Notes under the pieces: model-generated
What the model was told of the DNA's origin: nothing
The model's input: the letters and a program-made list of their open reading frames with translations, nothing else
Database searches by the model: none
Origin: Escherichia phage JLBYU28
Length of the DNA stretch: 64,000 nucleotides
Sequence record: OK272472.1
Direction: 5' to 3' (one strand)
Part shown: positions 1 to 17,919 of the stretch, in pieces
Position numbering within the stretch: the stretch's first letter is position 1
Layout of the letters: each line of letters opens with the position of its first letter
Translations under genes and position numbers: made by a program

Positions 1-1722
1 ATTGAGTAAAATTTACGAAATTTATATTTTTTATAAAATTTTATCGGTTGTCCCAACCTCTTGGTCACCATCATATGTGAACAAAATATCTATCCTTCTT
101 AACAACCTTCTTAATCTTACTCTCTATATATAGTTATATAGTACTATATAGTATCTTAGTATCTATCTAGTGGTCTTAATAGCCCTCTGTATAACCCTTC
201 TAACAAGCCCTCTAACAAGCCTTCTTAATAACCTATACAATCACCTTAACCATCTCTCTATACCCTCTTAGAAGCTCCTATACACCTCTTAATCTCTAGG
301 TTATCTGCGTTACTTAACAGTAACCCATTAGGTTAGCTATGTTACCCTCTATAGGTGTTCACTAGGTATTACTAAGCCTCTATATAGACTGTTTTAACAA
401 ACTTAACAGGGATATCTTTACAGACCTTATCTCACAAGGTCTAACACGGTATTAACAAGGTATCTTATAAGCCTGTTTCTACCTGTATTTTTAAAAGACT
501 GTATAGGTAATTATTCAGAATTTTAAAATTTTTATAAAATAGGACTATCAAGTCATTTTTTAGGGTCTTTGAAGGAACTCAAAAATATCTGTAGAGTTGA
601 TTCGGTAGAATCTACCTCATGATGTATATCTGCTTGGTAGCCCTTAACAGCTCCTTAACACTCCCTTTGCAGAATTTTAAAATATCCTTAACAATCTCTT
701 AACAGTTACTACATCTTCTTAACATCTCTTCAGAGGTCTTAACAGTTTCTTAACAGAACTAACAAGGCTGTAATAGTTTCTTAACAGTTGATACATAGTC
801 TTTACAGAGGCTTAACAGATGACTAACAAAAGCTAACAGGGATTGGTAACAATACCAATTAGTTAATTTTAAAGAGTTATTTTGTTAAGATAATTAACAA
901 GCTTCTAACAAGTGTTTAACCTTTTTAACAAGCTATTAACATGGTCACTATCTCTGGTCTTATCGTTCCCTTCCTTTCTTAGTGATTCCTTAAACATACC
1001 TCTTAAAAACTCTCTATAGCTCTTTATAGGCTCTTTTAAGCCTCTTCCTAGTATTTACCCCTCAACTGTATGGATAGCTCTTTATAGGGCTTTACAGGGG
1101 CTTTTAAGGCTATGCCAAAGACTCTTACAAGGCTTTTACATGGTTGTAACAGAGGTTTAACAAGGGGCTAACAAGTTGCTAACAAGTGCCTTAAAAGCAT
1201 AACTATGTAGGGTTTGTTAAGAAAATGTTAAGAAAATGTTAAGGGGGCTAGCATTTACGTAACTTTTAAGCTACTTCAAAGTAACTTTAAAACCCCTATA
1301 ACATACTTTTAAGACACTAACAAGCCCTTTTTAGTAGTTCACAAGAATACTAACGAGATAATAAAGCTTACACCCTTATAAGATTCTTTTAAGGCTCTGG
1401 GAAGCTCTATAAAGGGCTTTTTAGAGTGGGTTAATATGATTGCTTAAGTTAGGTTGATAAGGCTGTTATAGAGCTTTATAGAGCGTTTTAGTGGTTGCCC
1501 TTCCCTTTCGGGTTATGGGCTTATATTTAAGTTGATTTGATAAGAGGTTATAGAGTAGACTATAGAGTTATTGCTTTTAAGGTATGAGATAGTCTCTATC
1601 GAATCAGTGGGATAGATTCTGGGAAGGAAAGGGATTGTATAGAGACTCTTTATAGACGTAAAAAAGCCCCTATGAGAAGGAGCTTTTAAGGTATCTGGGG
1701 CTATTTAGCCCCGTTGCGTCGA
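1..1722. repeat. ORF-free AT-rich region packed with short direct repeats (TAACA[A/G]G, CTTTATAG, CTTTTAAG words)
   Basis: No ORF >=60 aa on either strand in the track; >25 copies of the TAACA core counted by eye between ~100 and ~1330; tandem 11-mer GTTAAGAAAAT x2.3 at 1216-1247; palindrome ATTGGTA-ACAA-TACCAAT at 842-859. Confidence 0.7.
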
Positions 1723-1971
1723 TTAGTTGTAACCTTGTTTATTGTAGTACAGGGAGACAATCAAGTCACCCCAGTAATGGTAATGGTGTTCATCGTTTAA
1801 TGCCTCTTTTACAGCATCTTTCCAGAAGTCATCAGTAGGATTATAATCTGGAATGACTTGCTTGATAACTGTCTTCACTAATGAAAAACACTCGTCAGTC
1901 CCACCAATATCGAATTTAACGTCCAGAGTATAACAGCCATAAGCATTGATAGTTGCGCGGATAGTTGCCAT
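1723..1971 (-). CDS. hypothetical small early protein (82 aa)
   Basis: ORF with ATG start preceded by family-A cassette and AGGAG-like SD; no recognisable domain. Confidence 0.55.
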   Translation of the reverse strand: MATIRATINAYGCYTLDVKFDIGGTDECFSLVKTVIKQVIPDYNPTDDFWKDAVKEALNDEHHYHYWGDLIVSLYYNKQGYN

Positions 1972-4709: not shown

Positions 4710-4808
4710 TTTAGAATCTCCTAGTTTAAGGACTTTATTTAGTAGGGAGGTTATTGCCTCCCCGTTGATGAGTAATTTAATCTATCTAAAAATCAGTGTC
4801 AACAGTTT
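4710..4808 (-). promoter_or_regulatory. family-A cassette copy 5 (TTGACA-17-TAAATT, hairpin, SD)
   Basis: Consensus -35 hexamer present on minus strand. Confidence 0.55.
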
Positions 4809-5572: not shown

Positions 5573-5662
5573 TTTTAGAATCTCCTAGTTTAAGGACTTT
5601 ATTTAGTGGGAAGGTCATTCCCTCCCCGTTGATGTGTAATTTAATCTATCTAAAAACCAGTG
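5573..5662 (-). promoter_or_regulatory. family-A cassette copy 6 (TTGACA-17-TAAATT, hairpin, SD)
   Basis: Repeat alignment by eye. Confidence 0.55.
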
Positions 5663-15020: not shown

Positions 15021-17387
15021 TTAATCGTAAATTGTAGTCCCTTCTGGAACACACTTCACATCAAAGCCTAAGAACTTACTCACTTCGATGGGTGACACTT
15101 TATTCCAATCTAAATGAGAAAGCAAGAAGTTTTCTTGTTTTCTTTTTGAAAGGTAGTTTGTCACCTTGATGACCATACGGTCACCAGCTTTCTTAATTTT
15201 CTTGTACAGCTTTGTATCATTATCAAGACATCTTTTTAAATCTTGCAACACACTAATAGTGTAAGTGTATGCAAAAGGTGCAGCAACGTATTGGATTTTA
15301 CCAAACATTGCCTCTACAGCATCTTCATTACCTTCTAAGAAGATAGTTTTGTTTGTATCCCGCGAATAACAATAGCCACGAGAAATCTTCCTGTTATTGA
15401 ACGTAAAGTTTCTGGCAATAATCCAACTGCTTGTAAGGTCGAGGACACCATTCATATAGATACGTGTCATATACCTGTTATGATTAATCCAATGAACATC
15501 AGTTAAGCTGTCGTTCAAGAGTTTCTCATCTACTTCAATCCAGTCTTCTGGTATCTTTTTCCAATTTGCTTTTCGGAAAACATAGACTGTCTTACCTGTA
15601 ACATTAGCAACTGACTTAGCTACATCTTCTGGAGATGAGCAAAAACATTCACCATCAACTGTGTCACCGACTGCCTTAATATAAAGCTGAGGCTCTTCAA
15701 TCGTATCTAAGTCTTCTGACACATCTATGTATGAAGCTACACCTTCTGCTGGAACAGCTTTCCAAAGTTTTACAACACCTCTTACAGCTTCTTTACGCTG
15801 ATAATGGTGTTCCTTATCAGACATTTTCACAATCTTTAACAAGCTTTTATCAAGTTTGTGCAGATTGATTAAGTCATCTAGCTCTTCCTCATTAGAGAAT
15901 ACAAAGACGATACCATTGTATCTGTGAAACAGACTTGACTCGCTGGCATAGTCTCGACATGCACCACGCAGAATCTGATTGCGTCCTACAGTCTTCTCAG
16001 TTCCGTTTTTATTGCGACGGTCATTAATCACGAACAAAAACTGTTCAATTTGGCTTTTACGCATTGCACCAAAGATATTGAACATACTTGCCTCTTGAGT
16101 GTAGGAAAGTGCTGTTGCACGAATCTTACTCTCTAAAGAGTTGAACTTAACATAAGCAACTGGATTGTATAGGTAATCTACTTTAGGGATATTATTCCCG
16201 TTCCTATCAACCTTAATATTACCTTTGCCGTCACGTTCATAGATGACTGAGCCGTCTTCTGCGTAGATAATCCCACGACGAATGTTTAGTAATTCTTCTT
16301 CCAGAGAATCAAGCTTAACGCCTCCCCACTCTAGCTTTGGACACACAGCATTAAACATTTCTCGTGAGTTCAAACGTAACTCAGCATAAGCCTGTGCAGC
16401 ATCCATGAGTGTAGGTTGGCTATTAACTTTCTTGATAACATCTTTTGTAATTGCTTCAGTTATCTTTTTAGTAGCCTCGATGATAACATTTTTTGTCGTG
16501 TCATTCATCTGCAATGCTTCACGAGAAGCTGCAATAGCAACTGAACCAATAGGCATGTAGATGTTTACAAGGTCTACGCTCCTACGGAAAAATTCTGGCA
16601 AGACTTTGAAGAAATCATCACCAAGTAATGCTTCCATGTTAACTGGATAGGCAATATTACCCATCACCACATTAAATTCTGTCCTGTTACTACTAGAGCG
16701 CCAGCTTTGCTTATGAATCATGGCATCATAAACACCTTCTTCACGGGCAATGACGTTCATATCTGCTAATACATCGTCATACTCGATATTGCTTTCTGGT
16801 TTTACAGCAAAGTATGAATATACGTGACCCGCTTCTTCAAAGAACTTTGAGATACGGTGGTCAGCAACTGCTACACGTACAGCTAAACCATTAGGCTCTT
16901 TTGTTGGGTTAGTGGTAAGCTTAGTTACTTGAGGGATACCATTCTCAAGATAAACAGAGTACTTATTAACAACACCGTCAACATAGCTAGACACTGTGAA
17001 TGACTGAGCAATTGCAAATGGAGATTTTGAGCCGATACCCATTGCACCAATGTAGTCATTAGAGTCATTCTTCGTAGAAGCCCCGTAGTTCAGATACAAA
17101 CTCATAACTTTATCATGAGTCAGTCCAGTTCCAAAATCACGAACTTCGAAGTAAGGCTCAAAACGAGTAGGTAAATGCACATGGAATGGGATGTTCTCTT
17201 TTCCAGCTTCTTTCTGAGCATCTACTGCGTTACATGACAGTTCACGAATCACTGCTCGCTCTTTAAACGTGTATACACCAGAACTCAAAAGGCTGAACAT
17301 TTCAGGTGTCATTGTAATCTGTGCTTGAGATGTCTCTAAAGAAGTTGAACTCTTAATCACTTCTGCGTGGTCATTTACCATGCGCAT
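15021..17387 (-). CDS. rIIA: rIIA-like protein with GHKL/histidine-kinase-like ATPase domain
   Basis: N box IRELSCNAVDA, G1 box RDFGTGL, G2 box GAMGIGSKSPF; ~790 aa. Confidence 0.7.
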   Translation of the reverse strand: MRMVNDHAEVIKSSTSLETSQAQITMTPEMFSLLSSGVYTFKERAVIRELSCNAVDAQKEAGKENIPFHVHLPTRFEPYFEVRDFGTGLTHDKVMSLYLNYGASTKNDSNDYIGAMGIGSKSPFAIAQSFTVSSYVDGVVNKYSVYLENGIPQVTKLTTNPTKEPNGLAVRVAVADHRISKFFEEAGHVYSYFAVKPESNIEYDDVLADMNVIAREEGVYDAMIHKQSWRSSSNRTEFNVVMGNIAYPVNMEALLGDDFFKVLPEFFRRSVDLVNIYMPIGSVAIAASREALQMNDTTKNVIIEATKKITEAITKDVIKKVNSQPTLMDAAQAYAELRLNSREMFNAVCPKLEWGGVKLDSLEEELLNIRRGIIYAEDGSVIYERDGKGNIKVDRNGNNIPKVDYLYNPVAYVKFNSLESKIRATALSYTQEASMFNIFGAMRKSQIEQFLFVINDRRNKNGTEKTVGRNQILRGACRDYASESSLFHRYNGIVFVFSNEEELDDLINLHKLDKSLLKIVKMSDKEHHYQRKEAVRGVVKLWKAVPAEGVASYIDVSEDLDTIEEPQLYIKAVGDTVDGECFCSSPEDVAKSVANVTGKTVYVFRKANWKKIPEDWIEVDEKLLNDSLTDVHWINHNRYMTRIYMNGVLDLTSSWIIARNFTFNNRKISRGYCYSRDTNKTIFLEGNEDAVEAMFGKIQYVAAPFAYTYTISVLQDLKRCLDNDTKLYKKIKKAGDRMVIKVTNYLSKRKQENFLLSHLDWNKVSPIEVSKFLGFDVKCVPEGTTIYD

Positions 17388-17415
17388 AATACTTTCCTCT
17401 TAGTTTACTGTTAAA

Positions 17416-17592
17416 TTACTTATTAAACATTTTACCAGAACCACCACAAATAGGGCAACAACCTGCTCTTGTATACCCTTCTCCGTTACAGTAGTCACAC
17501 TTTTTGTGTTCTGCAAAGTACTTACAAAGAAGGCAAACAAATATTGCTACACTACCAAGTGACAGTAAAATTTCTATCCAATATGCTTGCAT
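17416..17592 (-). CDS. small membrane protein with zinc-ribbon-like CxxC...CxxC (58 aa; below track threshold)
   Basis: Hand translation MQAYWIEILLSLGSVAIFVCLLCKYFAEHKKCDYCNGEGYTRAGCCPICGGSGKMFNK. Confidence 0.4.
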   Translation of the reverse strand: MQAYWIEILLSLGSVAIFVCLLCKYFAEHKKCDYCNGEGYTRAGCCPICGGSGKMFNK

Positions 17593-17909
17593 GACTCACC
17601 TCTCATATTTTTGTAAAGGATAAAACTTCTGTCATGGACGATACTTGTAGATACTGCAAAGTTACTTTCAAGCATCTGTTTGTTTGGATTGTAGAAGCCT
17701 TCTTTAAACTCGTCAAGTGCAAATTGGTGATTGTCTGGAAGACCTTTTACACAAACCTTTATTGTGATTGCTGCTGCAATCTTGCCAGTCAGTTCTTCTT
17801 TAGCTGCTACTAAAATTTTGTTAAGGAACTTTTTACCATCTTCAGGTTTCTTAATGTTCTCCCAACGTTCTTCTAAGACAATGTTGATGTTCATCTCTTT
17901 GATTTTCAT
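17574..17909 (-). CDS. hypothetical protein (111 aa)
   Basis: ORF in track. Confidence 0.5.
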   Translation of the reverse strand: MKIKEMNINIVLEERWENIKKPEDGKKFLNKILVAAKEELTGKIAAAITIKVCVKGLPDNHQFALDEFKEGFYNPNKQMLESNFAVSTSIVHDRSFILYKNMRGESCKHIG

Positions 17910-17919
17910 AGTCTTCTCC

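Follow-up and report, generated by a model that had tools for sequence, protein, structure and literature searches.

The first 1,722 nucleotides of the window analyzed here, a 64,000-nucleotide (64-kb) stretch of the genome of Escherichia phage JLBYU28 (sequence record OK272472.1), occupy a gap between two converging gene blocks, with the late and lysis genes on the plus strand ending just left of position 1 and the early block of small genes on the minus strand ending at position 1723. An earlier note, made from the letters of the sequence, had described this gap as lacking any open reading frame (ORF) of at least 60 amino acids, and the longest that we find there has 43. The gap is matched at 80-95% identity by 256 phage records, nearly all of which have names or classifications of the Felix O1 type, from Felixounavirus or a sister genus, with hosts in Escherichia, Salmonella, Shigella and Citrobacter. 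By this similarity the window is a Felixounavirus genome; the phage belongs to the Ounavirinae, not the Autographiviridae, and is a myovirus. The counterpart of the gap in Felix O1 lies between ORF24 and ORF23, and its length is kept at 1.6-1.75 kb across genera (1622 bp in Felix O1, 1743 bp in the Mooglevirus Moogle and 1667 bp in the Suspvirus SUSP2). Phage AYO145A has a late-side terminator hairpin and T-run that stop directly before the sequence opening the window, and at the early side two tandem hairpins (1662-1708; minimum free energy -27.2 kcal/mol, z = -5.07), with stems conserved and loops variable among aligned relatives, lie at a place where the AYO145A record has a terminator annotated, so that the region is bracketed by inward-facing terminators. 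The palindrome GGGGCT-ATTT-AGCCCC (1693-1708), listed in the earlier note among the features of the landscape, is present and conserved and proves to be the first of these two minus-strand hairpins, which end the early operon. We argue below that this region is almost certainly the genome-end region of the phage, that is, a concatemer junction holding one whole direct terminal repeat (DTR), and that the short words that fill it may serve its recognition during packaging.

Terminal repeats in this group are known already, in that their presence and approximate size in Felixounavirus have been published and the record of at least one relative gives their position. The authors of the Felix O1 paper chose rIIA as an arbitrary starting point for the genome and only inferred "short terminal repeats", but direct terminal repeats of 608 bp were shown in UAB_Phi87 by Bal31 digestion and run-off sequencing, with the TerL of that phage placed in a Felix O1-like DTR cluster, and repeats of 581 bp were determined in Pr103Blw by PhageTerm. 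The Pr103Blw record opens at the physical ends and has the repeat annotated at 1-581 and 87841-88421. Between its last early gene and the right copy lie 457 bp, and between the left copy and its first late-side gene 631 bp; these 457, 581 and 631 bp together make up exactly the gap under study. Comparison with the genome ends of related phages, a check that the earlier note had suggested, places the DTR of the window at 636-1248. Searching with this segment alone retrieves seven relatives whose records begin at the segment and match it twice, and comparing both ends of individual records yields exact terminal repeats of 581 bp in Pr103Blw, 613 bp in Ro111lw, 591 bp in ZX4221 and 694 bp in NBSal004. 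The edges are identical in these four, with GCCCCCTTAACATTTTCTTAACA... at the outer edge and ...GTTAAGGGCTACC^AAGCAGATATACATC at the inner one (here and below the caret marks the cut); the DTR of the window has the same edges and is 85-90% identical to the determined Felixounavirus repeats. The window holds a single copy, as expected if the assembly is collapsed or permuted. Five relatives, the four just named and the Kolesnikvirus phage SPARTY, have exact repeats homologous to 636-1248 at the two ends of their records.

Both edges fall within blocks of sequence that are invariant, by which we mean that at least 95% of the genomes agree in an alignment of 22 genomes from three genera. The left block (623-649) is the inner edge of the exact repeats in the same four relatives and the right block (1237-1251) is their outer end. 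Homology to these phages places cleavage by the terminase at two fixed, conserved sites, TGTATATCTGCTT^GGTAGCCC and GTTAAGGGGGC^TAGC, which would lie 613 bp apart. The two sites have in common TGCT(T/A) before the cut and G..CCC-TTAACA after it, and phased TTAACA words begin 6-8 bp inside each cut. Positions 641-667 and 1219-1245 form a 27-nt inverted repeat, 78% complementary, whose right arm belongs to the tandem 11-mer that the earlier note had reported; Tandem Repeats Finder returns it as a perfect array at 1215-1243. The units at 1216-1248 are the sole tandem TTAACA words on the minus strand and are oriented into the DTR, and their copy number differs among relatives, from roughly 2 to 4.

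The region is built from a lattice of such words. TAACA[AG] occurs 26 times on the plus strand and 3 times on the minus strand of 1-1722, a density of 16.8 per kb that is tenfold that in the other 62 kb (1.67 per kb), and four 8-mers are present in 4-8 copies where the rest of the window predicts 0.05-0.31: CTTAACAG (8 against 0.10), CTAACAAG (7 against 0.05), CTTTTAAG (7 against 0.31) and CTTTATAG (4 against 0.08). The spacing is very regular. There are 58 self-matches of 5-mers 11 bp apart, where dinucleotide shuffles give 3.1 (z = 24) and 36 equal-sized control chunks of the window give at most 7, and their harmonics at 20-22, 31-33 and 42-44 indicate a word period of about 10.7 bp, one helical turn. 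Nearest-neighbor word spacings of 10-12 bp likewise occur 16 times, against 2.6 +/- 1.5 under random placement, and Tandem Repeats Finder detects eleven arrays with a period of 10-12 in the region. The earlier note's account of reiterated, regularly spaced short words thus held up well under both counting and periodicity analysis. Altogether about 45 short words (YTAACAR, CTYTWTAG and CTTTTAAG), mostly on one strand, extend over 1.7 kb; they are densest within the DTR but are present in both unique arms, as with the TTAACA and CTAACA words on the plus strand of the left arm (1-635). No comparable word cluster was found elsewhere in the 64-kb window, a confinement that fits a localized array of any kind. 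Word orientation is constant across 1-1722, but the spacers change, being C/T-rich up to about 950 and G-rich beyond about 1000, and this switch in spacer composition produces a local GC-skew flip from -0.35 to +0.20, centered near the middle of the DTR.

Conservation speaks for function in this non-coding DNA and against drifted coding sequence, a possibility that the earlier note had also discounted. The region is 71-95% identical to the window among the aligned genomes, where the neighboring gene at 1723-1971 ranges from 49% to 96%. In most relatives the two are about equally conserved, and in the distant ones the non-coding DNA is the better kept (71-80% against 49% in Moogle, 73-82% against 65% in SUSP2). 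No ORF of at least 30 amino acids is common to more than 10 of the 22 genomes, and the region is not missing from collinear relatives, being matched by 256 records where the flanking late gene is matched by 253. Invariant runs lie at 127-152, 370-410, 434-477, 523-542, 623-649, 1237-1251 and 1372-1393, and those within the best-conserved part of the left arm resolve into 370-410, 434-451 and 453-477. Word counts are steady, at 22-28 on the plus strand and 2-7 on the minus strand in 19 Felixounavirus genomes and SUSP2, and conservation is 0.915 in words and 0.843 in spacers, a difference reached in 0.8% of circular shifts. One feature did not keep its standing: the small palindrome at 842-859, to which the earlier note had drawn attention, is present, but it sits in an insertion found in 4 of the 22 genomes and is therefore dispensable, and we rejected it as a functional center of the DTR. 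The insertion (840-861) measures 22 bp, or two helical turns, and one relative has a 48-bp version. Changes in lattice length tend toward whole 11-bp units, with 11- and 22-bp insertions or deletions recurring, although these counts do not represent independent events.

A more distant comparison is provided by Erwinia phage phiEa21-4 (Kolesnikvirus), which has a 1.44-kb gap (16472-17912) at the equivalent convergence point. Only 126 bp of this gap align to the window, at 70% identity, and they span the left cut site. The gap nevertheless holds TTAACA 17 times on the plus strand and 8 times on the minus strand (17.3 per kb against 0.94 per kb elsewhere), with self-matches peaking at 11 bp (48) and 12 bp (47) and with reverse-oriented ATGTTAA-type words near one edge. 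Other words differ between the genera: the early-side arm of phiEa21-4 has YTTAGAAG, 8 on the plus strand and 0 on the minus, where Felixounavirus has CTTTTAAGG and CTTTATAGG, and its late-side arm has three copies of CTGAGAAG where Felixounavirus has three of TATATAGT, TTAACA being common to both. From the motifs we predicted the DTR edges of phiEa21-4 at TATATCTGCTT^ and GTGGC^TAACC, about 448-886 of the gap. Kolesnikvirus records from several submission sets open at 445-448 or 884-886 of the gap, matching the prediction, and the record of SPARTY has an exact 439-bp terminal repeat with the predicted edges, TGTATATCTGCTT^ and ...AAGTGGC^TAACC. Cut sites and the TTAACA lattice are thus conserved across genera, while the length of the repeat and the surrounding sequence are not. 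The gp32 ORF annotated in phiEa21-4 (17660-17881) may be spurious, since it falls within this non-coding junction. When IMG/VR was scanned for TTAACA-N5-TTAACA-N5-TTAACA, the matches listed were mostly unrelated tandem repeats, together with Ounavirinae contigs, and are uninformative on wider distribution.

The junction of phage T7 shares this architecture: it too is non-coding, with one-strand word arrays in and around the DTR and cuts at the repeat edges. We count 13 CCTAAAG words in it, 13 on the plus strand and 0 on the minus, distributed within the 160-bp DTR and to either side of it, with a period of 13 bp and harmonics at 26 and 39. These short-repeat arrays were reportedly named SRL and SRR by Dunn and Studier in 1983. 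The differences are several, as the Felix O1-type words (YTAACAR and CTTWWAAG) have a period of about 10.7-11 bp; the region is larger, with some 45 words over 1.7 kb and a 613-bp DTR, and has inverted phased words at its edges; and it lies between converging host-polymerase operons, whereas the T7 genome runs in one direction and its junction separates the late end from the early start. The arrays have no sequence homology and the gene sets are unrelated. The resemblance is architectural and not by descent, and the region is another junction array of the T7 kind. Recognition sites made of repeated short words for the small terminase are familiar from the pac site of P1, with hexamer clusters on both sides of the cut, from pacL and pacR of SPP1 and from the R sites of lambda cosB. 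There, as here, a fixed cleavage site has short words clustered around it whose phasing would suit a multimer that bends or wraps the DNA; the Felix O1-type region differs in having two cuts 613 bp apart, not one, and arrays several-fold longer. The repeats reported for UAB_Phi87 and Pr103Blw are the same element, for which the published reports give length and position only. In the papers that we consulted, on Felix O1, VpaE1, UAB_Phi87 and Pr103Blw and the PhageMaP study of Bas63, we came across no account of the word lattice, of inverted edges, of conserved cut-site blocks or of their conservation into Kolesnikvirus.

Taken together, these findings lead us to favor, with a probability of about three in four, the explanation of the region as a Felix O1-type concatemer junction furnished with phased recognition words. 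The more specific claim that the words constitute a binding array with a role in packaging we consider about as likely as not. The chromosome in the virion would be linear, with the 613-bp segment at 636-1248 at both ends. Phages with short DTRs hold one repeat per concatemer junction and duplicate it during packaging. As in the general model of T7 type, the repeat between the two cuts would be copied by DNA synthesis, leaving each packaged chromosome with a copy at both ends. The words, spaced about one helical turn apart, would most likely be sites where a multimeric protein binds, marking the junction and bending or wrapping it for recognition and cutting; the opposite orientation of TTAACA at the two edges could allow mirror-image recognition, with nicks placed on opposite strands one repeat-length apart and strand-displacement synthesis then proceeding through the repeat. 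The earlier note had entertained a protein-binding array or structural DNA of several kinds, and of these its terminal-repeat or packaging option fared well, since the whole DTR and both cut sites lie inside the region, while an origin gained no such standing. We also put forward, as a speculation that is rather doubtful, that the 1.7-kb junction could be a dedicated nucleoprotein scaffold, in which the recognition protein coats or wraps the approximately 45 words, the opposed edge arrays position the nicks and set the repeat length, and the protein (gp23 being a candidate) might stay bound to the DNA ends inside the capsid or shield them during entry.

Several considerations weigh against this account of the junction. 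The ends of the phage in the window are assigned by homology to relatives, the advantage of words over spacers in conservation is modest, the words have no known binding protein, and no function can be assigned to the genes on either side. The arrays also extend about 500 bp (left arm) and 430 bp (right arm) past the cuts, a reach that pac and cos recognition sites are not known to have and that leaves room for another or an added role. The authors of the Felix O1 study noted no recognizable small terminase in Felix O1-like phages. In a recent insertion screen T7 tolerated insertions almost everywhere that was probed near its genome ends, the exceptions being two positions close to the left repeat's inner edge, so that such arrays may be redundant or weakly selected.

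An origin of replication at or overlapping the DTR is the first alternative to be weighed, with the words as its iterons and a phage initiator opening the AT-rich stretch at 498-558. Iteron origins such as lambda ori and plasmid oriV or oriR do combine phased direct words with a neighboring AT-rich stretch; the words of the region are iteron-like, phased and one-stranded, and its AT-rich stretch is conserved and lies beside word clusters, although neither the phased repeats nor the AT-rich stretch is specific to origins. The GC skew also turns from negative to positive across the region, but the turn follows the C- and G-richness of the spacers over about 1.5 kb and is therefore not a replication signature. 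Consensus matches for DnaA boxes and IHF sites are absent from 1-1722, as are Chi and GATC, and the PHROGs and Pfam scans of the flanking genes revealed no adjacent initiator-like gene. The strongest conservation and the inverted symmetry are centered on the two cut sites instead, and T7 has a like array at its junction while its primary origin lies elsewhere. We therefore consider an origin unlikely, though it would not be exclusive of a packaging junction with recognition words.

It is similarly improbable, in our view, that only the cut sites and the repeat are functional and that the words are a by-product of slippage or unequal crossing-over of 11-bp units in non-coding DNA. Such a process would account for the variable copy number of the terminal 11-mer, the recurrent 11- and 22-bp length changes and a DTR length that ranges over 581-694 bp, and it would sit well with the tolerance of most insertions near the ends of T7. 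Yet the TTAACA word, its strand bias and its phasing are kept in Kolesnikvirus where the surroundings no longer align, the word count is stable across the 19 Felixounavirus genomes and SUSP2, the words occupy the unique arms outside the repeat as well, and the 1.7 kb are at least as conserved as the adjacent gene in more distant relatives.

The likeness of TTAACA to the -35 consensus TTGACA (5 of 6 positions) raises the further idea of promoters, or of a host-factor sink, recruiting or soaking up host RNA polymerase at the first-entering DNA end. A sigma-70 scan finds 13 sites against 7.3 +/- 2.4 expected, including TTAACA-17-TAAAAT at 655-683, but this excess is weak (about 2.4 standard deviations), and for that reason promoters were rejected as the main explanation. 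With the next word following after 11 bp, most words lack a suitably spaced -10 element, the best candidate has a -35 that most relatives replace by CTTACA or GTAACA, and any transcript of the plus strand would either enter the early genes in antisense or leave the chromosome at its end, all of which makes the idea very unlikely. Small proteins or a structured non-coding RNA missed by annotation are less likely still, for although short hypothetical proteins are annotated here in several deposited records, ORFs of the length considered above are shared by no more than 10 of the 22 genomes, a scan of 1-2000 at E <= 1 found no Rfam match, no tRNA gene is present and the terminators of both flanks face inward.

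The terminal repeat explains the presence of 1.7 kb of gene-free DNA in a tightly packed phage genome, and its two edges offer exact base-1 landmarks for more than 250 Felix O1-type genomes, most of whose records start at an arbitrary point and do not include the repeat. As bait, the word lattice could be used to find the DNA-recognition partner of the terminase in a phage group widely used in typing and biocontrol of Salmonella and E. coli. Alongside T7 it provides a second, independent case for studying one-strand phased words at concatemer junctions, and for engineering it marks sequence near the convergent gap that should not be disturbed by payload insertion. The finding would not surprise a specialist; its use lies in annotation and in a handle on the recognition factor. 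The coordinates of the features are collected in the table.

Table. Features of the gene-free region and its border in the 64-kb window (TRF, Tandem Repeats Finder; roles and DTR limits are as predicted from sequence and from homology to relatives)
Feature	Position	Strand	Description
Left unique non-coding arm	1-635		From the late-operon terminator to the DTR; 71-94% identity to 21 relatives
Three tandem TATATAGT words	127-152	+	Every base common to at least 95% of 22 genomes; TRF period 8-9
Best-conserved part of left arm	370-477	+	TTAACAA, TTAACAG, TTTACAG and TTAACAAG words; 50-bp conservation 0.94-0.98
AT-rich stretch	498-558		At least 85% A+T; conserved core 523-542; overlapping palindrome 508-541
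Left cut-site block	623-649		TGTATATCTGCTT^GGTAGCCCTTAACA, predicted cut between 635 and 636; at least 95% agreement in 22 genomes of three genera
Direct terminal repeat (DTR)	636-1248		613 bp; aligned to the annotated DTR of Pr103Blw; one copy in the window
Terminal inverted repeat, left arm	641-667	+	Pair of TTAACA words at 11-bp spacing (from 644 and from 655), pointing into the DTR
Densest YTAACAR run	687-934	+	Spacing mostly 9-13 or 20-22 bp; period-11 arrays 687-756, 792-839 and 894-920
22-bp insertion	840-861		Contains palindrome ATTGGTA-ACAA-TACCAAT (842-859); in 4 of 22 genomes (window, L009, UAB_Phi87, SUSP2)
Two triplets of words	1010-1110	+	CTCTATAG, CTTTATAG, CTTTTAAG and CTTTACAG; spacing 10-11 bp; TRF array 1010-1046
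Three (G)GGGCTAACAAG units	1157-1188	+	Exact 11-bp steps (1157, 1168, 1179); period-11 array 1158-1188
Tandem 11-mer, right arm of terminal inverted repeat	1216-1248	-	GTTAAGAAAAT, GTTAAGAAAAT, GTTAAGGGGGC; ends exactly at the right DTR edge
Right cut-site block	1237-1251		TGTTAAGGGGGC^TAG, predicted cut between 1248 and 1249 (GTTAAGGGGGC^TAGCATTTACG); at least 95% agreement in 22 genomes
Right unique non-coding arm	1249-1722		From the DTR to the last early gene; holds CTTTTAAG and CTYTWTAG words
Two tandem hairpins ending the early operon	1662-1708	-	GGGGCUAAAUAGCCCC, then a second stem with U6; intrinsic terminator
Last gene of the early block	1723-1971	-	82 amino acids; homologue of Felix O1 gp23 (ORF23); PHROG 4559, no Pfam domain

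The genes around the junction offer no candidate for a word-binding protein, since searches of PHROGs and Pfam with three genes from either flank yielded solely families of unknown function and no Pfam domain. Felix O1 gp23, the homologue of the nearest early gene product, was detected in the virion in proteome work on Felix O1, though it is encoded in the early block. A tblastn search of the 64-kb window with TerL, the portal protein and the small upstream ORFs of phiEa21-4 gave no match, which places the packaging genes (terminase, portal) outside the window. ARAGORN found no tRNA gene anywhere in the 64 kb; Felix O1-type genomes have about 20 tRNAs, and with none in the window the cluster must sit outside it.

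Two further observations concern the rest of the window. GATC is absent from the whole 64 kb, against 182 +/- 12 occurrences in dinucleotide shuffles and about 220 by Markov expectation, which points to very strong counter-selection against Dam/MboI-type sites; CTGCAG is likewise absent, with about 22 expected, and Chi sites number 0. Among the small early genes, an intergenic cassette recurs in five copies (1980-2010, 2310-2340, 2908-2938, 4718-4748 and 5582-5612) with at most 2 mismatches over 31 nt, where none would be expected. Read on the coding (minus) strand, it consists of a G/C hairpin, GGGGAGGG...CCCTCCCC, followed by TAAGTAAAGTCCTTAAACTAGGAG and then the next start codon, and it is probably a terminator or processing hairpin joined to a shared ribosome-binding leader.

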